A stretch of 58,414 nt of DNA from an uncultured Methanosarcinales archaeon (GCA_964562045.1 CAZLRR010000002.1:1-58414); one strand, 5' to 3'; positions 3,098 to 58,366 are shown, counted from the first letter of the stretch. Numbers and translations: made by a program. Notes: generated by a model not told the origin, from the sequence alone.

Positions 3098-3665
3098 TAA
3101 AATTGCAATAATTATGGTTGGGGCCCCTGGAAGTGGAAAAGGTACACAAGGAGAGCTTTTGGCAAAAAATACTGGTTTTAAAAAGTATGTTATGAGTGAT
3201 TTGATTAGAAAGGATATAAAACCTGGAAGTGAGTTATTTGATAAGATGAAGAAGGGGCTTCTTTTGACAAATGATGACGTTTTTAAGGTTTTTAGAGACC
3301 AGTTTAAAGGCGAAAAAAAGGTTATTATTGATGGAATTCCTAGGACTTTGGATCAAGCTTATTGGTTATATGGTTATTTGGTGGAGAATGGTTATACAAT
3401 AGAAGTTATTTATTTGAAGTGTGATGAAAAAAAACTTTTGAAAAGGATTTTGAAAAGAGCAGAGGAGCAAGGAAGAAGTGATGACAATAAAGAGATTTTT
3501 AAACATAGATTAGAAGAGTTTGATAGAGCAAGAGATGTTATTTTGGAGGTTTATTCTAAAGAAATAGTTCAAATAAATGGAGATAAAACAATTGAAGAAA
3601 TTTCAAGGAATATTTTAGATAAATTAAACAATAAATTGGATTTAAAATTTAAAGTTAAAAAATGA
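3087..3665 (+). CDS. adk: Adenylate kinase (short type)
   Basis: It has the P-loop GAPGSGKGTQ and the GIPRTLDQA motif. I placed the start at the first ATG (3087), not at the GTG at 3078 used by the ORF track. Confidence 0.85.
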   Translation: MVGNKIAIIMVGAPGSGKGTQGELLAKNTGFKKYVMSDLIRKDIKPGSELFDKMKKGLLLTNDDVFKVFRDQFKGEKKVIIDGIPRTLDQAYWLYGYLVENGYTIEVIYLKCDEKKLLKRILKRAEEQGRSDDNKEIFKHRLEEFDRARDVILEVYSKEIVQINGDKTIEEISRNILDKLNNKLDLKFKVKK

Positions 3666-3741: not shown

Positions 3742-4503
3742 ATGAAATCTTTTGCTATAGCTTCAGGTTCGAGCGGGAATTGTTATTATGTTGAATCAAA
3801 AAATACTAAGGTTTTGGTTGATTGTGGAATTTCTTTTTCCAAAGCTAAAGATATTTTAGCAGATAAGAAAATTAATGTAGAAGAAATTAATGCTGTTTTT
3901 ATTACTCATGAGCACGGAGACCATATTTCAGGTCTTGGGGCTTTTTTGAAGAATTTAGATTGTCCATTTTATTTGTCTAAAGGTACTTTAGAGGGTTCTA
4001 AGTATTGTGATGAAAAGTTTAAAATTGTTAAAAATCATGATTTTGTAAAGATTGAGGATGTTAATGTTTTTGTGGTTGATAAGCCTCATGATGTAGATGA
4101 GGCAATTTCTTTTGTTTTTGAAGCTGAGGGTAAGAAAGTTGGAATTTTTTCAGATTTAGGATATGTTACAGATGAGATTAAACATATCTTAAAAGGTCTA
4201 GATGTTATTTATATCGAAGCTAATTATTGTCATGAGCATATAAAACTTAATGGAAAAGATTTGCATTATAATTATGTTTCACGTTTGACTTCAGATTCTG
4301 GACATTTGGGTGTTGATCAGACTATTGAGGTTTTAAAAGAGGTTGCAAATGAGAGACAGAAAATAATTTTATCTCATATTTCTGAAAATACTACAACGTA
4401 TGAAAATATTTATTCGAAAGTAAAAGAAGCTTTGAGTTTGGAGAATATTTTTCCTGAATTAGATATTTGTTTTCAGAGTGAGCCTAGCGAATGGGTAGAA
4501 TAA
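3742..4503 (+). CDS. Metallo-beta-lactamase fold hydrolase
   Basis: It has the HxHxDH motif (THEHGDHISG). I moved the start to the ATG at 3742 because the ORF-track start at 3727 is TTG. Confidence 0.75.
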   Translation: MKSFAIASGSSGNCYYVESKNTKVLVDCGISFSKAKDILADKKINVEEINAVFITHEHGDHISGLGAFLKNLDCPFYLSKGTLEGSKYCDEKFKIVKNHDFVKIEDVNVFVVDKPHDVDEAISFVFEAEGKKVGIFSDLGYVTDEIKHILKGLDVIYIEANYCHEHIKLNGKDLHYNYVSRLTSDSGHLGVDQTIEVLKEVANERQKIILSHISENTTTYENIYSKVKEALSLENIFPELDICFQSEPSEWVE

Positions 4504-4522: not shown

Positions 4523-4828
4523 TTATTTCTTTTTATCGGAAGATTTTTTTGTTGATTTTTTTGCAGTTTTCTTGGAAATTTCAATTATTGCAGAATCATG
4601 TTCCATTAGTCTTTCATACATTTTTTGGATTTCTGCTGCCATTTCAAGCCTTAAGTTACTGATTTCCAGTGATAATTTTTCATTTAACATTTCTTGAAAT
4701 TCTTCAAGTGCTCTTTGGAAATCCACGCTTGCATCTTTTTGATTTTTTACGATATTTATTTTCGTAGTTAAAACATTCATATCTTTTTTAATTTTGGAAA
4801 ATGCGTTTTTTAGTCTTTTTTCATCCAT
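4523..4828 (-). CDS. Small coiled-coil protein with a Lys-rich tail, function unknown
   Basis: A 101-aa ORF with an ATG start and heptad-like charged sequence. Confidence 0.5.
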   Translation of the reverse strand: MDEKRLKNAFSKIKKDMNVLTTKINIVKNQKDASVDFQRALEEFQEMLNEKLSLEISNLRLEMAAEIQKMYERLMEHDSAIIEISKKTAKKSTKKSSDKKK

Positions 4829-4882
4829 ATTTAGAAATATATTTCAAAGTTTATAAATTTTTAGATTTTCATCACTTGAAAG

Positions 4883-5479
4883 TTAGGATTTGTTGAAAAG
4901 AAATAGCATTTCGTCTTGTGTTTCTTTAAGAAATCTTTCTATTTCTTCTATTTCTTCTTTAATTTTTTTAATGTGTGATTGAAGTATTTTTTCTTCGTGA
5001 TGATGGTTTTCAATTAATTGTTGGATATTTGAGAGTTTTATTCTTTTTATTGTTTCAAGTTTTGATGTATCTGCTTTAAGGTTTTTTAGTGTTTTTTGTA
5101 TTAAATTAATTTCGGAAATAATTTGATTTTCTTCACTAGTTAGGATTTGGTGAATTTGTATAAGATTTTGAATATCTGTTTTCCATAAATTTATGGCTCC
5201 AATAATTGTAAGAATATATTGTTTATGTCTAAATGGTTGTTTTTGTTCTAAAAAGTTTGCAAATATTTCTTGTTCTGAATCCGCAACTAATCCAAATTGT
5301 GTTGATTCCATAATCATTGCATGTCCTGTTATATGTCCATTTTCATCCATTCTTGGACCTATACAACCATTTGTTTGGTGTTGAGTAAAAATTCCTGAAT
5401 TTGAATAAATTAGTTTATTCCAATTTTTTAGATAGGATTCAAATTCAATAATTTTTTCTTCTGTTATGGTTTGTGTCAT
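4883..5479 (-). CDS. Hypothetical protein: a globular N-terminal domain plus a C-terminal coiled coil
   Basis: A 198-aa ORF with an ATG start. I recognised no family motif. Confidence 0.55.
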   Translation of the reverse strand: MTQTITEEKIIEFESYLKNWNKLIYSNSGIFTQHQTNGCIGPRMDENGHITGHAMIMESTQFGLVADSEQEIFANFLEQKQPFRHKQYILTIIGAINLWKTDIQNLIQIHQILTSEENQIISEINLIQKTLKNLKADTSKLETIKRIKLSNIQQLIENHHHEEKILQSHIKKIKEEIEEIERFLKETQDEMLFLFNKS

Positions 5480-9056: not shown

Positions 9057-9354
9057 CCTTTATATTTTTTGGTTTTGAGCTTTATATATTTTTGGTAGAG
9101 GTGAGATTATTTTTTTTATTTTTAAATTTGACAAATAGTTTTATAAATTCTAAACACCTCATATTTCTTATGGAGAAGAAAAACTTAGTAAAAACTAGTG
9201 ATTGTCGGCCTAGACAATAGTTTATACTATAAAATTTCTTCAATAAAGGGACTTCCCGTATAATTCTAAATTAAAACAAAGACAACAAAGACTAGTATTT
9301 ACTAGAAACAAATTATTATTCGTATTTGAAATCACTTCAATTTAAAAGAAATAA

Positions 9355-9440
9355 AACCTCCCTCCTCCTCCTAAAAGTTCAAGTAAACTTAAACTTTTAG
9401 CCACACACCGAGGGTTCTTTGATTAAATGAAGAGATTTCC
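9355..9440 (+). repeat. R1 repeat family, short fragment: pyrimidine box, short hairpin, and a CCACACACCGAGG tail
   Basis: The tail ccgagggttctttgattaaatgaagagatttc is nearly identical to 51999-52029. The box cctccctcctcc matches the R1 inter-module linker. Confidence 0.7.
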
Positions 9441-11147: not shown

Positions 11148-11158
11148 TTTCATTTTGT

Positions 11159-11264
11159 TCCTTTGAATACCCCAACTTTTAAGTTGGGGATGAAACGTAT
11201 ATTTTAAGGGAGTGGTTAATACTCTATCATTTAGGCGCCAATAACTCAAATTTGTCGATTTTTG
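11159..11264 (-). mobile_element. R3 small insertion element, 106-bp copy, in inverted orientation relative to the copy at 47974-48104
   Basis: It aligns with the reverse complement of 47974-48104, including the hairpin ccccaacttttaagttgggg and the end motifs. Flanks are tttgt / tttat. Confidence 0.7.
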
Positions 11265-11340
11265 TTTTATTTGAATTTAGTTTTATAACTACTTTTCACA
11301 GATAATGCTTTCTTTTCAAACAAGATATTTTTAATTTTTT

Positions 11341-15530: not shown

Positions 15531-18500
15531 ATGGAGAGTTTTCCAATCATTGAGACCAGAAAAATTGAGGATTATGGTGATGATTCCAGTGTAGATTTGG
15601 CAGTGGAGACTATGAAGCAAGGAAAACAAGTTTTGATTTTTAATAATTCTAAGAGAAGTAGCGAGGCAACAGCAGATAAAGTTGCAAAGAAATATGTTGA
15701 AAGAGCAAATAATGAAGAACTTGAGAAGCTTTCTGAACAGATTTTGAAAGTATTACCAACTCCAACAACCCAGTGTAAAAGGTTAGCAAATGCGGTAAAA
15801 AAAGGTGTAGCATTTCATCATAGCGGTTTAGTAGGAAAACAAAGATCTTTAATCGAAAATGCATTCAAGCAAGGAATTTTGAAGGCGATTTCGAGCACCC
15901 CAACACTATGTTTGGCAAAAGGAACTAAGGTTTGGTCAAATAATAAAAAAATTTCTATAGAAAAATTAAAAACAAATCAGGTTTTCGCATTAAAAGATTC
16001 AAGTTTGAATTTAATCAAACCAGAAAAAGTTGAAAATAATGGGTATAGTGATGAATTAATTGAGATTGAAAGTGTTTCGAGTCATAAAATTAAAGCAACA
16101 AAGAACCACAAATTTCTGATTAGAAGGAAAGGGAAGAAATTAATTTTGCAAGCAAACGAAATTAAGAAAACTGATTTGATTGCAACAGTAGGAAAAATTG
16201 AGATTAAAGAAAAAAATTTGATGTTTTCACAGTTTATTTTGGACAATTCTTTTCCTCTTGAAGATAAAGAAATTCCTGCAGAAATATTTTATTTAATTGG
16301 TGCAATGTTGGGTGATGGTTATTCTGGGGCTGAGAAGAAAGGCAACAAAATAAAATATAAGGGAAGTCCTTCGATTGTTGGAGTTGATAATGAAACTTTT
16401 GACAGGGTTCGGTTTTCGTGCAAACTTTTAAGAATTTCTTATAGGAAAACAAAAAATATCTATGGGACTCCCCAGCTAGTATTGGGAAAAAATAATTGGT
16501 TTAGGGAATTTTTAGTTAGGTGTGGTGTTGATGTTAGTGTTAATAAAAACATTTCAGAAGAGTTGAAGTTGGCAAGTAAAGAGAAAATTTCTAACTTATT
16601 AAAAGGGCTTTTTGACACGGATGGTTATGCAGAAAAAAGAGGACAACTCGGATATTCTAGCATTTCTTTAGATTTAATTAAAGATGTTCAAGAACTGTTA
16701 TACAGGTTTGGTATTACATCTAGAATTAGAAAAAGAAAGAAGAAATCAATTAGAATTTCAAATAAAGAATATGATTGTAAAGATTCTTATGAATTAATAA
16801 TTGCTGAAAACAATTCTATGTTAAGCTTTTTTAATAATGTTGGTTTTAATATCAATAGGAAAAAAGAAGTTTTAGATGAAATAATTCATAAAATTCAACA
16901 AAATATTTTGTATAAAGAATGTAATTTTTGTAATTATAAGTTATATTCTGATTTGTTTGGGGGAAGAACAAAAAGTCAAAAAGATTGGGGAAATGCAAAA
17001 CTCTTAATAATAAAAAATTTAGAAAAGTTTGGTCCTTTAACTTCAAAAGATTTAACTAATAAAGTTGGGTTTGAAATTAGAAAGAATAGTTCTAGATTAA
17101 ATCATCACTACGAATTAATTGGAAAAACAAAATTTAGCAAATATGATTGGACTTGGAATTTAAATTCTATTGGGAAAACAATTTCTAAGGAATTAAAAAA
17201 TTCGTCTTATGAAGAAATTTTTGAGAGAACAAATTGTTTAGTTTGTGGAAACAAATTAAACGAAAACATAAGGAATAATTGGAAAAATTCAAATAAGGAT
17301 GGAGATATTTTTTGGGATCAAATTAAATCAATTAAGAAAATTAAAGAAGAAGTTGAAGTTTTTGATGTTGTTTTACCCTCAGATGATTCAAATGATCATT
17401 TGTTTGTTGCAGAAGGATTTATAACGCATAATTCTGCGGGGCTCAACCTTCCAGCATATAAAGTTATTATTCGAGATTATAAAAGGTATTCAAGATTTGG
17501 TTTTGCAGATATTCCCGTCTTGGAGTTTCATCAGATGGCTGGGCGTGCAGGAAGGCCAGGTTTAGAATTTGTTGGGAAAGCTGTTGTTTGCGTAAAAACT
17601 GAAGATGAACTTGCAAGAGTTACGAAAAAATATGTTTTCGGACAGGCCGAAGAAGTTATTTCAAAACTTGCTGTTGAGCCAACTTTGAAAATGTACATGC
17701 TCTCTCTTATTGCAATGGACATAATCAATACAAAACAGGAAATTAAAGACTTTTTCAAAAATACTTTATATGCTCATCAGTACCAAGATCATGAAGCTTT
17801 TAATTTTAATTTATTTAGGATTTTGAACATTTTAAAAGATTATAGATTTATTTCTCAAGAAGACGATTATTTTATGGCAACACCAATTGGAAAGAAAGTC
17901 TCAGAGCTTTATTTAAATCCAGATACGGCAAATTATTTTTATTCTAATCTTGACAAATTTATTAAAAAATTTTCAAATAGTAAAATTGGTAAAAATGACA
18001 TATATTCACTTCTTTATTTTGTTTCAGACACTTTGGAAATGAAACCTTTATTTAGCATTAGGAAAAATGATGAAGAAAGGTTACAGCTAAGGGCAGAAGA
18101 AGTGGCAGATGGTTTGATAGTTGGATTTGATCCTTATGAGATGGATTATAAGCAGTTTTTATCTCTTTTAAAGGTGAGTGATTTGTTTTTGGATTGGATT
18201 AGTGAAAAAAGTGAGGATTATTTGTGTGATTTATATGGCGTAACTCCAGGAGAAATGCAGTTTAAATTTGAAATTGTTGATTGGCTACTTTATGCTCTGG
18301 AGGAAATGGCTTTGATGAAAAAGAGTATTTTTGTTAAGAATTATTTGACGAAATTACGTCAGAGATTCAAATTTGGAGTAAAGGAAGAACTTTTGATGCT
18401 AATTAAATTAAAGGGGGTTGGAAGAGTTAGGGCTAGAAAGCTATATAACGCAGGATTTAAGACTTTAAATGATATCAGGAAGGCAAGTTCAGATGATTTA

Positions 18501-18698
18501 GTTAAAGTTATTTCGTCTGGTCTTGCTTTAAGTTTGAAAAAACAAATTGAAGGGAGTGAGATTGGAGAAAACAAACTTGCTTTGCCAAGAGAACTTCGTG
18601 CAAAAGAAGTAAGCGATGAGGAGATTGAAGTTTTGCTAAATAACGAGAAAGAATTCGAGAAACAAAAGAAAGGTGGAGGATTATTAGATTATTTCTAG
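15531..18698 (+). CDS. Hel308/Ski2-type DNA helicase, C-terminal part only (RecA2, WH, ratchet and HhH domains), interrupted by an intein
   Basis: Motif IV region QVLIFNNSKRS is present. GVAFHHSGL and STPTL|intein|SAGLNLPA represent motif V. Motif VI is QMAGRAGRPG. The C-terminal HhH is LIKLKGVGRVRARKLYNAGF. There is no Walker A or DExH domain. Confidence 0.85.
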   Translation: MESFPIIETRKIEDYGDDSSVDLAVETMKQGKQVLIFNNSKRSSEATADKVAKKYVERANNEELEKLSEQILKVLPTPTTQCKRLANAVKKGVAFHHSGLVGKQRSLIENAFKQGILKAISSTPTLCLAKGTKVWSNNKKISIEKLKTNQVFALKDSSLNLIKPEKVENNGYSDELIEIESVSSHKIKATKNHKFLIRRKGKKLILQANEIKKTDLIATVGKIEIKEKNLMFSQFILDNSFPLEDKEIPAEIFYLIGAMLGDGYSGAEKKGNKIKYKGSPSIVGVDNETFDRVRFSCKLLRISYRKTKNIYGTPQLVLGKNNWFREFLVRCGVDVSVNKNISEELKLASKEKISNLLKGLFDTDGYAEKRGQLGYSSISLDLIKDVQELLYRFGITSRIRKRKKKSIRISNKEYDCKDSYELIIAENNSMLSFFNNVGFNINRKKEVLDEIIHKIQQNILYKECNFCNYKLYSDLFGGRTKSQKDWGNAKLLIIKNLEKFGPLTSKDLTNKVGFEIRKNSSRLNHHYELIGKTKFSKYDWTWNLNSIGKTISKELKNSSYEEIFERTNCLVCGNKLNENIRNNWKNSNKDGDIFWDQIKSIKKIKEEVEVFDVVLPSDDSNDHLFVAEGFITHNSAGLNLPAYKVIIRDYKRYSRFGFADIPVLEFHQMAGRAGRPGLEFVGKAVVCVKTEDELARVTKKYVFGQAEEVISKLAVEPTLKMYMLSLIAMDIINTKQEIKDFFKNTLYAHQYQDHEAFNFNLFRILNILKDYRFISQEDDYFMATPIGKKVSELYLNPDTANYFYSNLDKFIKKFSNSKIGKNDIYSLLYFVSDTLEMKPLFSIRKNDEERLQLRAEEVADGLIVGFDPYEMDYKQFLSLLKVSDLFLDWISEKSEDYLCDLYGVTPGEMQFKFEIVDWLLYALEEMALMKKSIFVKNYLTKLRQRFKFGVKEELLMLIKLKGVGRVRARKLYNAGFKTLNDIRKASSDDLVKVISSGLALSLKKQIEGSEIGENKLALPRELRAKEVSDEEIEVLLNNEKEFEKQKKGGGLLDYF
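15909..17432 (+). mobile_element. Intein (508 aa) with a LAGLIDADG homing-endonuclease domain, inserted in helicase motif V
   Basis: The N-terminus is Cys (CLAKGTKV) and block B is TKNH. The two dodecapeptide motifs are LIGAMLGDGY and LLKGLFDTDGYA. It ends in the C-terminal HN followed by Ser+1. Confidence 0.9.
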
Positions 18699-41710: not shown

Positions 41711-41769
41711 AGAAAAAATTAGCTAGAATTAATACTAAATTATTTAAAGGATATAAATATTTTATTTTT

Positions 41770-43131
41770 ATGAGTTTTTTAATAGATTCAACCGAATTTT
41801 ATTTGTTTATTACTTTGTCTACTTTTTTAGGACTAATATTTTTAAATAAATCTACTTTTCGAAAAAAGAAAAAAGGGGGCGGTTGGTTTGAAGATGTTGA
41901 TTGGTTAATTGAGCTATTTAATATTTCTGCATTATTTTTTTCATACATGGTTTTTCTAGGATTAATTTTAGCAACGATTTATTGTATTTTGTTTGTTGTA
42001 AATTCTTCTTCTGAGGAATTCTTTAATTTAGTCATGTCATTAACAAAATTAACTTTTCTTTTAGCAATACCTCTTTTGATTGCAGGAAGTAAAAAAATAT
42101 TTGTAAATAAGTTATCAATTAGAGAAATTGTTGAAAAAATAACTCCTTTATTTTTTATTTTAATAATAGTAAATTTTTTTGTGATTTTTTATGGGAATTA
42201 TTCTAATTCTTTTACAAATATATTATACAATTCATTTATTATTTATTATTTTATTGCGGCATATGTTTTTTATTTAATTTTTGGATATTATGGTATTGGT
42301 TTTAAAAAAAATTTTAGAGAGAATTGGAAATGTTATCTTTTCATTATAATTCTAATAATCGTTGGTTGTGTTTTCATATTTAATAAGAATACTATTGAAA
42401 AAACAAATTCAAATTTAGAGAGTTATTTTTGTGATGGGCGCGGTTGTTCGGCGTTATGGGTTGATTCTTATAACTATGATAAAACTGTCATTAATGACAA
42501 AATATTTGATTTTCATTATTATGATAAATTAATTTTTAATTATTCACAAAATAATGTTGAGTATTATGGAAAACCATTAAGAATTTTGTTTTATGACAAA
42601 GAAGGCAACTGGTTAGATGTAATTGAAAATCCCGAAGATAAAGTTGAAACCAAAAATTTTACCTTATATCTAGATTCTGAAAAAAAGAATATAATTGTGG
42701 ATATGGAAAATGAGGATTTTATGTCAAAGCTAAGTTCTATATCTATTTTAAGTTGGGAAAAGAGTTCTGAGAAAGTTAAAGGTTTACCACAGACATTTAA
42801 CCAACCCTCGTATATGGTTGATGCATATTTTGTTTGGTTAGATAGGAGAAATCCCGAATATGTTTTACATAAATTTAAAGATAAAGAAGTTATTTTTGAT
42901 GATTTTTGGGTTAGAATTTACCATAAAGAAAATTGTAGTTTTACAAATTTAACTAATTTACAAGGATTTTATCAACGTGTCTCATATTGTGAACCAACTA
43001 ACTGTCGATTAGAAAAAAAAGGAATAAATTTAAATTTCAGATTTACAAATAATAATAATATTTTGCTATCTGGAAACATAAAAGAAGGAATTTCAAATGT
43101 TTCTTTTGAATTGCCAGTTATTTGTGATTAA
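41770..43131 (+). CDS. Polytopic membrane protein with a C-terminal extracytoplasmic domain
   Basis: A 453-aa ORF with about 6 N-terminal TM helices. Confidence 0.55.
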   Translation: MSFLIDSTEFYLFITLSTFLGLIFLNKSTFRKKKKGGGWFEDVDWLIELFNISALFFSYMVFLGLILATIYCILFVVNSSSEEFFNLVMSLTKLTFLLAIPLLIAGSKKIFVNKLSIREIVEKITPLFFILIIVNFFVIFYGNYSNSFTNILYNSFIIYYFIAAYVFYLIFGYYGIGFKKNFRENWKCYLFIIILIIVGCVFIFNKNTIEKTNSNLESYFCDGRGCSALWVDSYNYDKTVINDKIFDFHYYDKLIFNYSQNNVEYYGKPLRILFYDKEGNWLDVIENPEDKVETKNFTLYLDSEKKNIIVDMENEDFMSKLSSISILSWEKSSEKVKGLPQTFNQPSYMVDAYFVWLDRRNPEYVLHKFKDKEVIFDDFWVRIYHKENCSFTNLTNLQGFYQRVSYCEPTNCRLEKKGINLNFRFTNNNNILLSGNIKEGISNVSFELPVICD

Positions 43132-45372: not shown

Positions 45373-47466
45373 ATGAAAAAAATATTTTTCGCAATTTTGG
45401 CAATTTTTATGCTCGGTTTTGCGGGTTGCATGGCTGTTGTTGACGGAAATAATGGAACAGATAATAGTTCTGTGATTTCTGATTTGAAATCTGATGATTT
45501 TGTTAAGATAGAGTCAAAAGCTCAGCTTCAAGAGTATTTGATTAAAAATACTGCCGAAAATTTTGTTTTCTCAGGTTTTAGAGGAGGTTTTGAAGCTAAA
45601 TCTTTGTCTGCAGATAGTGTGGCTCAAGAAAGTGGAACTTCTGGTTCTGGAGATTATACAACTACAAATGTCCAAGAAAAAGGTGTTGATGAAGCAGATT
45701 TAGTGAAAACTGATGGAGATTATATTTATGTTTTAGGAAATAATAATTTAATCATTTATGATGCTAAAAGTCCTGAGAATACTAAAGAGATTTTGATTAA
45801 AGAATTTGATGGTAATTACGAGGAACTGTTTATCACGAAAAATAAAGTTATTCTTCTTGGAAATGCAAGAGAAGAAGTTTGGAGAGTTGACGGATATAAT
45901 TTTGTGCCGAGAAAGTCTTTTGAGTATTCTACAAGTGTTCTGGTGTATGAGTTTGATGGAGAGAATATTGAAATTGAAAAGAATTATTCTTTGACTGGGA
46001 ATTATTATGATTCCAGACTTATTGGAGATGATTTGTATTTTGTTTCTCAAGAGTATGTATATGGTTTGTGGGAAGGTCCAATGCCCCTTTTAAAAGCAGG
46101 AGATGTTGAGATAGAGTCTGAATTTTATATTCTGCCAAATCCGCAGGGAAGTTATGTGACTTATAGTATTGCGGGAGTTTCTCTTGATGATTTGGAAGAT
46201 GCAGATGTTCAAAGTTTTATGGCAGGTTATGATACTACTTTTTATGTGAGCGAGAATAATATTTATTTCGCATCTAAAAAACCTTGGAGTTACCATAATA
46301 ATTTTGAGCAAAGAGTTGAAAGATTTGAAGAGGCTGTTCTTCCTTTACTTGATTTGAAAACTCAGATGAAAATTGAGGATTTAAGAAAAGATGAAGATAC
46401 TTATTTTGAAGATGTTGCAAAGATAATGCAAGAGATGTATGGGGAGTTGTCTGAGAAGGAAGCTGAGAATTTGGCAGAAGAGATTGAGGAATCATTAGAT
46501 GAGTATGATGTTAAAATGGCCAAGGAGAAGGATAAAACTGACATTTTTAAGTTGAGTCTTGATGGCGGAAAAGTTGAATTGGAAGAGAAAGGGGAAGTTA
46601 GAGGTTCTTTATTGAATCAGTTTTCTTTGAGTGAGTATGATGGAAATTTGAGGGTTGCTACAACTTCATCTTTTTGGTCAAATGAAAATGGCAGAGAACA
46701 GTCTAATAATGTTTATGTGTTAGATGAAAGTTTGGAAGTTATTGGAAGTCTTGAAGATTTGGCGGAGGACGAGAGAATTTATTCTGCAAGGTTTGAAGCA
46801 GATAAATTATATTTGGTTACTTTTAAACAAGTTGATCCTTTCTTTGTAATTGATTTGGAAGATCCAACAAATCCCGAGGTTTTAGGTTATTTGAAATTGC
46901 CAGGATTTTCTAAGTATTTGCATAAGATTTCAGAAGACGTTGTAATCGGAATTGGTCAGGATACAAAAGAGTCTGAGTGGGGAGGAGTAGTTACAAATGG
47001 TTTGAAGTTTACACTTTTTGATGTGTCAGACTTTGAAAATCCAAAAGAACTTGATTCATATTATGTTGAAGGAAGATATTCAAATAGTGAAGTTTTAAAT
47101 GAGCATAAAGCTTTTTTTTATGATGAATCTAGAAGTCTTCTTGCAATTCCTGTTTCAAAGTCTCGGGATTTAGATGAGAAGTATTATCGTGCAGAGTATT
47201 GGCAAGGCGTTTTAGTATTTGATTTAGAAAATAACGAATTTGATTTGCTTAAAGAGATTGAGCATTCGGAGTGGGGAGATAGAAATCGTTGGAATTCTGG
47301 AGTTAGGAGAGTTTTGAGAATTGATGAGGTAATGTTTACAGTATCTAATACTGAGATGATTTTAACTGATTTGGGAGATTTTAATCAAATCGAAGAATTT
47401 GAGTTTCCAGAGTCTGAACAATACGTAGAACCTTATTCTGGAAGTAAAGAGATTATGATTGAATAA
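45373..47466 (+). CDS. Secreted lipoprotein with a C-terminal beta-propeller domain (COG4880-type)
   Basis: It has the lipobox-like LGFAGC. The segments TNVQEKGVDEADLVKTDGDYIYVL, FSLSEYDGNLRVATT and YLVTFKQVDPFFVIDLEDPTNPEVLGYLKLPGFSKYLH are characteristic. Confidence 0.7.
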   Translation: MKKIFFAILAIFMLGFAGCMAVVDGNNGTDNSSVISDLKSDDFVKIESKAQLQEYLIKNTAENFVFSGFRGGFEAKSLSADSVAQESGTSGSGDYTTTNVQEKGVDEADLVKTDGDYIYVLGNNNLIIYDAKSPENTKEILIKEFDGNYEELFITKNKVILLGNAREEVWRVDGYNFVPRKSFEYSTSVLVYEFDGENIEIEKNYSLTGNYYDSRLIGDDLYFVSQEYVYGLWEGPMPLLKAGDVEIESEFYILPNPQGSYVTYSIAGVSLDDLEDADVQSFMAGYDTTFYVSENNIYFASKKPWSYHNNFEQRVERFEEAVLPLLDLKTQMKIEDLRKDEDTYFEDVAKIMQEMYGELSEKEAENLAEEIEESLDEYDVKMAKEKDKTDIFKLSLDGGKVELEEKGEVRGSLLNQFSLSEYDGNLRVATTSSFWSNENGREQSNNVYVLDESLEVIGSLEDLAEDERIYSARFEADKLYLVTFKQVDPFFVIDLEDPTNPEVLGYLKLPGFSKYLHKISEDVVIGIGQDTKESEWGGVVTNGLKFTLFDVSDFENPKELDSYYVEGRYSNSEVLNEHKAFFYDESRSLLAIPVSKSRDLDEKYYRAEYWQGVLVFDLENNEFDLLKEIEHSEWGDRNRWNSGVRRVLRIDEVMFTVSNTEMILTDLGDFNQIEEFEFPESEQYVEPYSGSKEIMIE

Positions 47467-47550: not shown

Positions 47551-48496
47551 ATGGAAGACAAATTAATAATTTTTGAGGACAAAAAGATTAGGAGAATTTG
47601 GTTTAATGAAGAATGGTATTATTCTGTTGTTGATATTATTGAAGTATTAGTTGAAGCAAGTATTCCTAGGAGATATTGGTCTGATTTGAAGGCTAAAATG
47701 CAAAAAGATGAAGGTTTTGAGTTGTACGATTTTATCGTACAACTGAAATTAGAGGCTTCTGACGGGAAGAAATATGTAACTGATTGTGCTAATACAAAAT
47801 CTATATTTCGTATAATTCAGTCAATCCCATCAAAAAGAGTTGAACCTTTCAAACAATGGTTTGCTCAATTAGGAGAAGAAAGACTTGATGAAATTCAAAA
47901 TCCTTCATTAGCAGTTGAAAGATCTAGAGAATATTATAGAACAAAGGGCTATCCAAAAGCATGGATTGATAAAGAAAAAATCGCTGACTCACTCTATCTC
48001 CACCTAAAGGATGGAGTATTACGAGCGAGTCTTATTCGCGATTTTTAGTCATTCCTTAGAATATACATTTCATCCCCAACTTAAAAGTTGGGGTATTCCA
48101 AGGAATAAAAGATTAGAATCAACTCAAATAAGACAAGATTTGACTGACGAATGGAACGAAAGAGGAATAAAAGAGAGAAAAGATTATGCTATTTTAACTA
48201 ATGAAATTCATAAGGCTACTTTTGATAAGAACATTAAAGAACATAAAGAATTCAAAGATTTATCTAAGAGAAATAACTTAAGAGATAATATGACAACTTT
48301 AGAATTGATTTTTTCAATGCTAGGAGAACATGCAACTAAGGAAATAACTAAATCTAAAGATTCAACTGGCTTTGGCGAATGTTTTGATAGTGCTCAAACG
48401 GGCGGAAAAATTGCAGGAAATGCAAGAAAAGAACTTGAAAAACAAACAAAGCAAAAAGTAATTTCTAAGGGTGGCGAGGTAAAGAGGTTGGAGTAA
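47551..48496 (+). pseudogene. Bro-N / DinD-like (DNA-damage-inducible protein D family) gene, split into two ORFs by a 131-bp insertion
   Basis: The N-terminal part is IRRIWFNEEWYYSVVDIIEVL...SIPSKRVEPFKQWFAQLGEERL. The C-terminal part is RLESTQIRQDLTDEWNERG...NLRDNMT. Deleting 47974-48109 (136 nt) restores one 269-aa frame. Confidence 0.75.
47974..48104 (+). mobile_element. R3 small insertion element (131 bp) flanked by a 5-bp direct repeat (ataaa)
   Basis: The direct repeats are at 47969-47973 and 48105-48109. There is an internal near-perfect 20-nt palindrome ccccaacttaaaagttgggg nested inside attccttagaata/tattccaaggaat. A second copy lies at 11159-11264. Confidence 0.7.
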
Positions 48497-48512
48497 TTTT
48501 TTAAAGTTAATT

Positions 48513-48793
48513 ATTTGAAATAATCTCAAATTATAAGAAAAAAAAGTTGGCATTTTTGTTATATGGGTTATTGAAGATTAAAATTTTAATAGATTTAATT
48601 CCCCAAACCTCCCCAAAAACTTCGTTTTTGCTAGCCAATTTTAGAATTAAAATCCTAATCTTTGAGATGTTATACAATACATTCTTGCCAACTTTTAAGA
48701 TGCCTTCAGCCTCCCCCTAAAAAATCCAATTTGTTTGTTTTTTAGTATGGATTTTTCAGCCACACCGAGGTCTTTAAATTAAGAGATTCAATC
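48513..48793 (+). repeat. R1 nested-hairpin repeat, copy a (module 1 complete, module 2 reduced to a short hairpin)
   Basis: Positions 48601-48699 are essentially identical to 58032-58130. The basal stem is aaaagttggca/tgccaactttt, the second hairpin is aaaaatcca/tggattttt, and the tail is cagccacaccgagg. Confidence 0.85.
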
Positions 48794-48969
48794 AAATTAT
48801 TTGAAAATAGATTATTTTGGAGATTATTATTGAATAATTCTTCCCAAATCCTAAAAACACACAAAGTTTTCCCAAATCTGATAAAAAATCAAAAAGTTTA
48901 TAAATAAAAATTTCTTAATAGTTTTATCAAAAACGTAAAATTATAATGAAATTGCGTAAAACATAAAAA

Positions 48970-50820
48970 ATGGCAAAAGAAAAAGTATTAGGAATTGATT
49001 TAGGGACAACTAATAGTTGTATGTCTATTATTGAGAATGGAAAAGCGGTTGTTATTCCAAATTCTGAGGGTGGAAGAACAACCCCTTCTGTTGTGCACAT
49101 CACATCGAGTGGTGAGAGAATTGTTGGAGAGCCAGCAAAAAAACAAGCTATTGTTAAACCAAAAGAGACTGTTTCTTCAATTAAAACTCATATGGGTGAA
49201 GATTACAAGACAAATATTCACGGCAAAGATTACACTCCGCAGGAAATTTCTGCTATGACTTTAGCAAAACTAAAAAAAGATGCAGAAGCCTATGCAGGAA
49301 CAAAAATTAATAAGGCAGTAATTACAGTTCCTGCTTATTTTAGTGATGCACAAAGGCAGGCTACAAAAGATGCAGGAAAAATTGCAGGTTTTGACGTTGA
49401 GAGAATCATTAACGAGCCAACAGCAGCTGCACTTGCTTACGGAATGGATAAAGCAGATGCTCATAACGTTTTAGTTTTCGACTTTGGTGGTGGAACTTTT
49501 GATGTTTCAGTTTTAGAACTTGATGATGGAGTTTTCGAGGTAAAAGCAACAGCAGGAGACAATCATTTAGGTGGAGATAATATTGATAAAATCCTTGTTG
49601 ATTATATTGCTGATGAATTCAAAAAAGAACATGGAATTGATTTAAGAGAAGACCCTCAGTCAGCTCAAAGAATCAAAACTGCGGCAGAAAAAGCAAAAAT
49701 TGAATTATCCTCAAAATTAGAAACTGAAATTTCTGAGCCTTTTATTACTGCGGATGCAAGTGGTCCTAAACACCTTGAGATGAAAATTACAAGATCTAAG
49801 TTTAATGATTTAATTTCTGGAATTTTGGATAAACTAAAAAAACCAACAGAACAGGCGATTAAAGACTCCAAACTGAAAATTTCTGAAATCAATAAAGTTC
49901 TTTTAGTTGGAGGTTCAACAAGAATTCCTGCAGTTCAGGAACTTGTAAAATCTATCTCTGGAAAAGATGCAGACAAATCTGTAAATCCTGATGAGGCGGT
50001 TGCTTTAGGTGCTGCAATTCAGGCTGGAGTTTTAGCAGGAGAAGTTAAAGATGTATTGCTTTTAGATGTAACTCCTCTGTCTTTAGGAATTGAGACATTA
50101 GGTGGTGTGTTTACAAAAATGATTGATAAAAACACAACAATCCCAACTAAAAAGTCTCAAGTTTATTCAACTGCTGAAGATAATCAGAGTGCTGTAACTA
50201 TTAGAGTTGCTCAGGGAGAGAGGGCAATGTTTGCTGACAATAAATTGTTGGGTCAGTTTAATTTAGAAGGAATTCCGCCTGCGCCAAGAGGTGTTCCTCA
50301 GATTGAAGTTACATTTGACATTGATGCAAACGGTATTGTTAATGTAAAAGCAAAAGATTTAGGGACTGGAAAAGAGCAGGAGATAAAGATTGTTGCATCC
50401 TCAAATCTAACTGATGAAGATATTAAAAAGATGCAAGAAGAAGCAGAAAAACATGCTGAAGAAGATAACAAGAGAAAAGAAGAAATCGAAACAGTAAATA
50501 GGGCGGAAAATCTTGTATACCAAACTAAGAAAACACTTGATGAGAATAAAGATAAAGTTGACCAGAAACAAGTGTCTCCTTTAATGGAGCAAGTAAAAGA
50601 ACTTGAAGAACTTCTAAAAGCCGAAAAAAGAGATATTGAAAAAATCAAAGCAAAAGAAGAAGAAATCACTAAAAAAGCTCAGGAAATGTATAGTGCAATG
50701 TATCAACAAGCTGGGGCTCAAACAGGCGCTGAGGGTCCAAAAGAAGATAAAAAGGAAGATGATGTAGTCGATACGGAAGCTACAGAAAAAGATAAGAAAG
50801 AAGATAAAAAGAAGAAATAA
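48970..50820 (+). CDS. dnaK: Molecular chaperone DnaK (Hsp70)
   Basis: It has [15 protein letters not shown] and [11 protein letters not shown], and a Lys/Glu-rich C-terminal tail. Confidence 0.97.
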
Positions 50821-51801: not shown

Positions 51802-51879
51802 ATTAGTATTTAGAACGTTCAACTTAAAAAGGTTTGTTTTTTAGGGCTCTGTCCGGAATATAAAACAAACCTATTTTTA

Positions 51880-52030
51880 GAAAATTGATTTCCCCAAACC
51901 TCTCCAAAAACTTTGTTTTTGCAGCCAATGTTACATTTAAAAACCTAAATTTCTTATTGTTAAAATAATTAATTCTGTCAAAACTTTCATCCACGCGCCG
52001 AGGTTTCTTTGATTAAATGAAGAAATTTCT
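51880..52030 (+). repeat. R1 repeat, single-module fragment (apical region, right arm and tail)
   Basis: tccccaaacctctccaaaaactttgtttttgcagccaatgttacat plus the right arm and tail match module 2 of the copies at 56100-56230 and 58200-58320. The tail variant is shared with 9404-9440. Confidence 0.75.
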
Positions 52031-55850: not shown

Positions 55851-56256
55851 GAATTTGAAAACATATCAATTTATAAGAAATAAAAATTTGGCATTTTTGT
55901 TATCTGAGTTTTTAAAAGATTAAGATTTTAATAGATTTTTGTCCCCAAACCTCCTCAAAAATTTCATTTTTGCTAGCCAAGAATAGAATTAAACTCCTAA
56001 TCTTTGAGAGGTTATAAAAGAAATTCTTGCCAACTTTTAAGTTTCCTTTCACCTCTCCCTAAAGTTTTGATATTTTTGTTATATTATATAGTAAAAATTT
56101 GGGTTTAATTGACTTTCCCCAAGCCTCCCTCTCGCTTTGCTAGGCAGCCAATGTTACATCTAAAAACCCAAATTTCTTATTGTTAAAAAGTTAATTCTGT
56201 CAAAACTTTCAGCTCACGCACTCAAGGTCTTAAATCTAAGAGATAAATTCAAATTC
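55851..56256 (+). repeat. R1 nested-hairpin repeat, copy b (two complete modules)
   Basis: It is collinear with 57942-58345. The short termini gaatttgaa / ttcaaattc are inverted. Confidence 0.85.
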
Positions 56257-56263
56257 TAAAACA

Positions 56264-57912: not shown

Positions 57913-58366
57913 CTGAAGTTATGCGTTTTTTATCTTAGGTGTTTGAAATAATTTCTAATTATAAGAAATAAAAAAGTTGGCATTTTTGTTATATGAGTTC
58001 TTAAAAGATTAAGATTTTAATAGATTTTTGTCCCCAAACCTCCCCAAAAACTTCGTTTTTGCTAGCCAATTTTAGAATTAAAATCCTAATCTTTGAGATG
58101 TTATACAATACATTCTTGCCAACTTTTAAGTTTCCTCCCTCCTCCATAAAGTTTTGACATTTTTGTTATATTAGATAGTATAAATTTGGGTTTAATTGAG
58201 TTTTCCCCAAGCCTCCCCCTCGCTTTGCTCGGCAGCCAATGTTACATCTAAAAACCCAAATTTCTTGTTGTTAAAATAGTTAATTCTGTCAAAACTTTCA
58301 GCTCACGCGCTCGAGGCCTTAAAAGTAAGAGATAAATTCAAATTCCTAAAAAACGCATAACTTCAG
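57913..58366. repeat. Perfect 19-bp inverted repeat (57913-57931 ctgaagttatgcgtttttt; 58348-58366 aaaaaacgcataacttcag) that brackets R1 copy c
   Basis: I checked the exact reverse complementarity by hand. Confidence 0.9.
57942..58345 (+). repeat. R1 nested-hairpin repeat, copy c (two complete modules)
   Basis: Module 1 stems are aaaagttggca/tgccaactttt and aaagattaagatttt/aaaatcctaatcttt. Module 2 stems are aaagttttgaca/tgtcaaaacttt and aaatttgggttt/aaacccaaattt. Confidence 0.9.

Follow-up and report, generated by a model that had tools for sequence, protein, structure and literature searches.

Two overlapping open reading frames that each resemble a part of a Bro-N/DinD-type protein raise the question of whether they represent two genes or a single interrupted one, and, in the latter case, what kind of sequence interrupts it. 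The window, by which we mean the whole stretch of DNA analysed, is a chromosomal contig of 58.4 kb from a DPANN archaeon with AT-rich DNA (30% G+C) and encodes, among others, an archaeal-type ProRS, DnaK, DnaJ, an Nre protein, TFS and ribosomal protein S6e. Besides the organism's own, the closest ProRS among 5.8 billion proteins showed 76% identity, and the named relatives came from Nanoarchaeales, Nanoarchaeota and Woesearchaeota. The same organism (98-99.8% DNA identity) was found in the NCBI MAG GCA_048615555.1 and in two Logan assemblies. Samples SRR11308339 and SRR29060565 contain it.

The two reading frames are located at 47551..48048 (165 aa) and 48011..48496 (161 aa). An earlier note on this DNA had taken them for the halves of one gene. 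Deletion in silico of positions 47974-48109, i.e. 131 nt plus one copy of ATAAA (136 nt, 1 mod 3), indeed yielded a fused product of 269 aa (31 kDa) with the junction ...AWIDK/RLESTQIRQ..., and the sequence of the empty site, with the insert taken out, is GCATGGATTGATAAAAGATTAGAATCAAC. The joined protein contained a Bro-N domain (PF02498) at residues 12-106, scoring 30.9 bits against a Pfam gathering cut-off of 25.6. The parts of the gene are as follows:

47551..47973, + strand: 5' part of the Bro-N/DinD-like gene, codons 1-141 with the entire Bro-N domain; the homologue alignment runs to ...WIDK
48110..48496, + strand: 3' part of the Bro-N/DinD-like gene, codons 142-269 and the stop codon

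A search with the joined protein against 5.8 billion proteins gave 7882 matches at E <= 1e-3, and the best 120 of these 7882, which are described here, were 249-313 aa long with 58-68% identity and 90-100% query coverage. Many of the listed homologues were annotated as Bro-N, DinD or antirepressor proteins and originated from Woesearchaeota, Nanoarchaeota, Aenigmarchaeota and Methanoperedens. The junction was gapless in an alignment with 14 homologues, where K141 and R142 were invariant and WIDK/RL lay inside a conserved block. Since removal of the 136 nt restores the gene as well as a gapless alignment with its homologues, the single-gene reading and the exact borders of the insert are confirmed. 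The search for uninterrupted orthologues suggested in the earlier note showed that full-length genes are the rule, both among the best 120 of 7882 matches and in the 14-member alignment.

As it stands, the N-terminal frame encodes the complete Bro-N domain followed by 24 residues contributed by the insert, and the C-terminal frame is out of frame with it and takes its start ATG from within the insert. The break lies in a conserved motif and not in a linker, and full-length function is therefore probably lost unless the element excises. We infer that the Bro-N gene is presently inactive as a single product. The host gene is an accessory one and the event an ordinary gene disruption. No intact allele with more than 68% identity was present among the listed matches from 5.8 billion proteins, and a search for an empty-site allele by way of exact DnaK and beta-propeller sequences gave no match. 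The sole further contig with the N-terminal reading frame, from the NCBI MAG of the same organism (GCA_048615555.1; L082), carries the identical insertion with 0 differences over 946 nt, which excludes an assembly artefact.

The insert, which we call R3 copy 1, and the ATAAA motifs at its borders have the following anatomy:

47969..47973, + strand: ATAAA immediately 5' of the element, target motif or left duplicate; ATAAA is also found before copy 2 and the L083 copy (see below)
47974..48109, + strand: R3 copy 1, 136 nt, non-coding; its removal restores the gene, and similarity to copy 2 and the L083 copy starts and stops at these borders
47976..48046, + strand: domain 1, a compound hairpin with outer stem AAAAATCGC/GCGATTTTT
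47998-48016, + strand: apex hairpin of domain 1, CTCCACC-TAAA-GGATGGAG, from the fold; stem preserved in the L083 copy
48051..48106, + strand: domain 2, a compound hairpin with outer stem ATTCCTTAGAATA/TATTCCAAGGAAT and a 10-nt one-sided internal loop
48074-48093, + strand: apex hairpin of domain 2, CCCCAACT-TAAA-AGTTGGGG, identical to the 20-mer CCCCAACTTAAAAGTTGGGG
48105-48109, + strand: right-hand ATAAA, end of R3 copy 1 and second copy of the 5-bp direct repeat

Folded as single-stranded DNA, R3 reached -25.6 kcal/mol compared to -9.6 +/- 2.6 for shuffled sequences (z = -6.1; 0/200 shuffles were as good). Only 2-7 bases at its ends are unpaired and the remainder consists of the two long compound hairpins, whose apex hairpins are alike (CyCCAnC-TAAA-GnTGGrG), carry both TAAA loops on the + strand and lie 24 and 16 nt from the left and right ends, respectively. 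The palindrome within a second stem that had been described before corresponds to domain 2. The 20-mer is indeed nested in an outer stem, this stem comprises 12 pairs and one A.C mismatch (48051-48063 with 48094-48106) rather than 13 full pairs, and the left compound hairpin (47976-48046) had gone unmentioned. The 20-mer occurs twice in the window (0.01 occurrences expected). The insert contains no complete ORF, and direct comparison of its ends, GAAAAAATCGCTG... versus ...GGGGTATTCCAAGGA, revealed no terminal inverted repeats, both as stated earlier.

R3 is not restricted to this gene. The view of a very small, non-autonomous, hairpin-bearing repeat held, and further copies were found, including relatives in other DPANN genomes that had not been noticed before. 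Two of the copies are of the same type as the one in the split gene:

11154..11265, - strand: R3 copy 2, 112 nt, intergenic, 6 nt past the stop codon of proS (opposite strand)
about 3400-3612 of JGI contig Ga0062599_1004201 (L083): third window-type copy, intergenic, with ATAAA in front and the end AAGGAATAAA

Copy 2 has ATAAA in front (11266-11270), starts with ACAAAAATCG and ends with GGAACAAA, i.e. with ACAAA. Some 25 nt of domain 1 are missing from it, 4 positions of the domain-2 outer stem are mismatched and its fold is poor (z = -2.7), so that it looks like a decaying copy. It was found in three further assemblies, and two Logan contigs of the same organism terminate inside its hairpin, as expected for repeats. 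The copy in L083 was reached through a spurious 66-aa ORF (P0244), one of four matches in an exhaustive search with element-derived peptides; a word-indexed search with such peptides gave no match. Two compensatory double changes keep the apex stem of its domain 1 intact (CTCCA/TGGAG to CCACA/TGTGG).

More distant relatives were identified by the exact 20-mer CCCCAACTTAAAAGTTGGGG, which occurred in 75 stretches of GTDB genomes, among them 7 in one Pacearchaeota MAG and 4 in one Woesearchaeota MAG, the accessions of these two DPANN MAGs being JAFCCU01 and CAXNIJ01. The Woesearchaeota-type copies numbered seven, four in one MAG and three on metagenome contigs. Elements of these two sister subfamilies are 120-250 nt long and have the same two-domain design with CCCCAACTTAAAAGTTGGGG as the apex of domain 1, while their outer stems are wholly different and extra hairpin modules are inserted in some copies. 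Their folds are likewise stable (z = -10.5 and -5.7). All three subfamilies thus consist of two compound hairpins 2-4 nt apart with the same or a similar apex hairpin, and the strand of the TAAA loop is identical in most apex hairpins across subfamilies. The Pacearchaeota type, with the apex hairpins CCCCAACTTAAAAGTTGGGG and CTCCAGCTTAAAAGCTGGAG, follows the same near-terminal, same-strand pattern. The 20-mer was absent from viral contigs, the element had no match in plasmids or phages, and no R3-like hairpin was present in two loci with a ProRS identity of 72-76% (L084 and L085).

The genes beside related copies are housekeeping genes. When the 11 other copies with both ends defined were excised in silico, 10 of them left no reading frame that was substantially open on both sides, and several adjoined gene ends. 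Excision of the eleventh (L078) left just a 102-codon open stretch and is ambiguous; none of the 11 lies in a convincing gene.

This distribution bears on the possibility that the 136 nt are removed at the RNA or translation level and that the full-length protein is still made. Removal might be achieved by a broad-specificity DPANN splicing endonuclease or another activity, or by a ribosome hopping from AAA to the matching AAA. [quoted passage not shown] Like R3, these are short inserts in protein-coding genes whose removal restores the frame. R3 differs from them as a dispersed repeat found mostly outside genes and without a BHB motif. A register-by-register test found no central helix, with at most 2/4 pairs (G-U allowed) in all 20 registers compatible with removal of 136 nt, in agreement with the earlier note, and the RNA fold placed only the 3' junction in a 4-nt bulge. 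A BHB intron also does not fit the locations, as copy 2, the L083 copy and those of the Pacearchaeota and Woesearchaeota types occupy intergenic or gene-end positions (L078 being ambiguous). At gathering score, Rfam gave no match, and hence no ribozyme or intron, anywhere in the window or at the elements in 16 loci; a permissive Rfam search of 47800-48300 returned a best E of 0.057, with all hits far below gathering scores. The window contained no tRNA genes. Since BHB geometry and Rfam matches are lacking and the other copies lie outside convincing genes, an intron is not supported.

Programmed translational bypass, the second route, is exemplified by gene 60 of phage T4 and by the mitochondrial 'byps' of Magnusiomyces, where known gaps measure 27-55 nt and, in T4 gene 60, the take-off site is followed by a stop codon. 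Such elements share with R3 a mobile, hairpin-forming insert within a coding sequence and identical take-off and landing codons, here AAA/AAA in ATAAA. R3 does not qualify as a known bypass element, because its gap of 136 nt far exceeds this range and no stop codon adjoins the putative take-off codon, the next in-frame stop following 24 codons later (48046-48048); in addition, its relatives are intergenic. Intact gene halves, exact borders with matching codons, the strongly structured insert and the fact that the insertion is the sole allele seen would all agree with removal after transcription. The locus nevertheless has 0 differences in 946 nt between strains and so gives no evidence for or against selection on the two halves since the insertion. 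Taking these points together, we consider it highly improbable that the 136 nt are removed by either route from RNA or during translation, and an equally remote prospect that double-hairpin elements are tolerated in genes through post-transcriptional removal by non-BHB cleavage and ligation or by ribosomal hopping. If true, archaeal mRNAs would have a new kind of mobile 'intron'.

The ends and flanks of the copies were more informative with regard to the mode of insertion. Window-type and Woesearchaeota copies are preceded by ATAA(A), start with (A)CAAAAATC and end with AATAA(A); for the Woesearchaeota type this is (A)ATAA upstream, CAAAAATCC at the start and AAATAA at the end. Pacearchaeota-type copies have AT upstream, start with CAAAAGC and end with GACAT. 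The left flank was ATAAA in 3/3 window-type copies, ATAA or AATAA in 5/5 Woesearchaeota-type copies with a left border and AT in 7/7 Pacearchaeota-type copies. Direct comparison of the ends revealed no terminal inverted repeats in any of the three subfamilies; the ends of the Woesearchaeota type matched as inverted repeats at 8/12 positions, a resemblance that was judged not significant in AT-rich DNA.

The earlier note had regarded the ATAAA repeat as a target-site duplication, which amounts to a classical MITE moved by a DDE transposase with a 5-bp duplication at a preferred ATAAA. Copy 1 does lie between perfect 5-bp direct repeats (47969-47973 and 48105-48109), and in being small, multi-copy, non-coding, foldable and sometimes intragenic with short direct repeats R3 resembles known MITEs (Correia, Stowaway-like and archaeal ones). 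MITEs carry terminal inverted repeats related to a DDE transposon, whereas R3 has none, nor has any of the three subfamilies, and this absence makes a DDE-type MITE unlikely. Tabulation of the flanks, which the earlier note had also called for, did not establish a duplication, because the motif is constant over the copies of a subfamily instead of varying with the site, and is merely AT in the Pacearchaeota type. Furthermore, the TAAA hairpin loops are strand-asymmetric and the ends stand in direct rather than inverted orientation. We therefore regard a classical MITE as distinctly unlikely. Rather than a true duplication, ATAAA could be a target motif: being constant across copies, it may represent a left target plus the element's own right terminal motif, as in IS200/IS605 elements, whose insertion creates no duplication.

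Two copies, in L043 (about 4706-4953) and in L083 (about 3394-3620), have a longer direct repeat of 12-14 nt, AATAA(A)ACAAAAAT, at both junctions, and their 3' flank begins like the element's own 5' end. These extended repeats could have arisen by insertion beside an older left end or by core-directed recombination, and they suit either of these better than a simple insertion after a 5-mer. The corresponding alternative is site-specific recombination through ATAAA, extended to AATAA(A)ACAAAAAT, as a core that element junction and target have in common. The activity would come in trans from a tyrosine or serine recombinase or from an IS110/IS607-like enzyme, and the core would end up flanking the insert on both sides. 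Core-sharing would account for a direct repeat that is constant and not site-dependent, for the absence of terminal inverted repeats, and for the extended repeats, whose estimated chance of occurrence in AT-rich DNA is about 1e-3 to 1e-4 per copy. Against it, most copies have just 4-6 nt in common with their target, no recombinase was found among the 20 window ORFs scanned or the families listed for related loci, and it is not obvious what same-strand hairpins would do in site-specific recombination between double strands. The extended repeats may also stem from insertion by an older left end, and clustered or partial copies were seen in L050 and L073. On balance we consider such a shared core unlikely, and the same holds for the recombinase in trans that it would need.

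Concerning these two loci, a solo 18-nt left end in L050 (2895-2912) precedes a full Pacearchaeota-type copy by 128 nt, and in L073 (about 4050-4160) a degenerate copy adjoins a full one; elements of this family thus cluster.

The explanation that we favour, with moderate confidence, is that R3 is a transposase-free, palindrome-associated mobile element that was inserted at the DNA level and is mobilised in an IS200/IS605-like manner. An R3 copy would have been inserted as DNA directly 3' of ATAAA in the non-essential Bro-N/DinD-like gene. A TnpA-like HUH/Y1 enzyme encoded elsewhere would mobilise R3 in trans as single-stranded DNA ('peel and paste') and would recognise the folded subterminal hairpins. 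The left ATAAA would be the required target motif and the right ATAAA part of the element, with no duplication involved, and excision by the single-strand route would restore the gene exactly. The small size, the modular build, the lack of terminal inverted repeats, the similar hairpins on the same strand, the fixed 4-5 nt on the 5' side and the fixed end motif favour an HUH/Y1 enzyme; its class and the single-stranded intermediate are suggested by analogy with the elements compared below. The fact that assemblies of the same organism break within the hairpin is a further point in favour.

PATEs are transposase-free IS200/IS605 derivatives described from Haloquadratum walsbyi and Geobacillus (PMC3119063; PMC10055086). 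They and IS605-type ends in general have no inverted terminal repeats, near-terminal palindromes, of which the two may resemble each other, a targeting sequence of 4-6 nt and, in their case, no room for a transposase (PMC3119063; PMC3201880). R3 agrees with PATEs in its non-coding size, the absence of terminal inverted repeats, the similar palindromes near both termini, a 5' targeting sequence of 4-6 nt, heterogeneous modular families, a mostly intergenic location and the occurrence in archaea. It differs in that two long compound hairpins make up the whole element, that its right terminal motif equals the target motif, that no parent IS605-type element or TnpA with matching ends was identified, and that an IS608-type pairing of guide and cleavage site is not evident. 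Comparison with IS608 and ISDra2, which are mobilised by a Y1 HUH TnpA (PMC3201880, PMC5934647), gave a similar picture. Common to them and R3 are insertion immediately 3' of a defined tetra- or pentanucleotide, which is kept on the left, subterminal hairpins on one strand and precise excision by a single-strand route, which for R3 would apply under the favoured mechanism. The distances from the ends to the foot of the hairpins are comparable, at 19 and 10 nt in IS608 and 24 and 16 nt in R3. IS608, however, carries tnpA and tnpB, neither of which is present in R3, and its cleavage sites differ between left and right (TTAC and TCAA), whereas R3 has ATAAA at both.

Several observations speak against an IS200/IS605-like mobilisation. 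Guides in IS608 are GL AAAG for CL TTAC and GR GAAT for CR TCAA (PMC3201880, PMC5934647). Under the rule drawn from these pairs (G1 complementary to C2, G2 to C1 and G4 to C4), which may differ for pentanucleotide targets, the guide predicted for TAAA is TA-N-T, and the observed CTAT on the left and TCAT on the right match at 1/3 and 2/3 positions, respectively. If a TnpB were associated with the element, it could target its own locus, because the right end is identical to the target motif; this argues against a TnpB-linked element. The 12-14-nt repeats of L043 and L083 are not predicted by insertion after a 5-mer, and the two copies in the window are in opposite orientation. No Y1 or other transposase was present among the 20 window ORFs scanned, no transposase family among the best 25 of 78 Pfam families from 63 ORFs of 15 related loci, and an autonomous element with R3-like ends was not found. 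With no enzyme or parent element found, a guide rule that does not hold, an atypical right end and the repeats of L043 and L083, the favoured mechanism is one that we infer.

A 1.39-kb segment of the window (41738-43129) with a 453-aa ORF is missing from the otherwise 98-99% identical L082 and is therefore a strain-specific indel. The 453-aa protein was considered as a candidate transposase and rejected, as it is membrane-like and had no Pfam match.

For annotation, the two ORFs should be entered as a single Bro-N/DinD-like gene that is interrupted by a mobile-element insertion. The locus further supplies exact, protein-anchored borders for an apparently undescribed family of double-hairpin, transposase-free repeats of 110-250 nt in Nanoarchaeota-type DPANN (the window organism, Woesearchaeota and Pacearchaeota) with a strict ATAA(A) preference. 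Full-text searches of the literature on DPANN introns, archaeal MITEs and PATEs turned up no description of the R3 family, and the family, its ATAA(A) specificity and the hairpin that it has in common with Bacteroidota repeats appear to be undescribed.

The repeats of these Bacteroidota (loci L003-L075: Saprospiraceae GFS_12016, Chitinophagaceae, Sediminibacterium and others) are very abundant and likewise have CCCCAACTTAAAAGTTGGGG as their hairpin. It is located about 22 nt downstream of a GGCTAAAGCC hairpin there, and the repeats often form inverted doublets about 110 nt apart (REPIN-like) or 204-nt tandem arrays (L069). If one enzyme family reads CCCCAACTTAAAAGTTGGGG in both domains of life, this would imply a cross-domain spread of single-strand transposition into tiny symbiont genomes.

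Other repeats and insertions were observed in the window. A second intergenic repeat family, with longer members (170-400 nt, 78-92% identity), is present at 48514-48713, 55854-56261 and 57942-58350 and in partial form at 51871-52029 and 9325-9439. The split Bro gene is followed immediately by one copy, and dnaJ is flanked by two. Members have long-range inverted arms, AAAAGTTGGCA...TGCCAACTTTT, and the 14-mer AACTTAAAAGTTGG in common with the R3 hairpin, and the family may be a related mobile or structured element. A 1055-aa helicase ORF (15531-18698) contains an intein with a LAGLIDADG endonuclease, as judged from Pfam matches to Intein_splicing and LAGLIDADG_3 in its identical counterpart in L079; the syntenic helicase homologue in L084 has 558 aa and no intein. 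Three tandem 95-nt units (100%, 100% and 74% identity) at the contig start (1-285) may be a contig-end repeat or an assembly effect. Divergence between the strains was very uneven, with 26 substitutions in the upstream beta-propeller gene (45507-47397) and, within 47551-50721, none in the Bro gene and the element and one in the next approximately 2.2 kb through most of dnaK.
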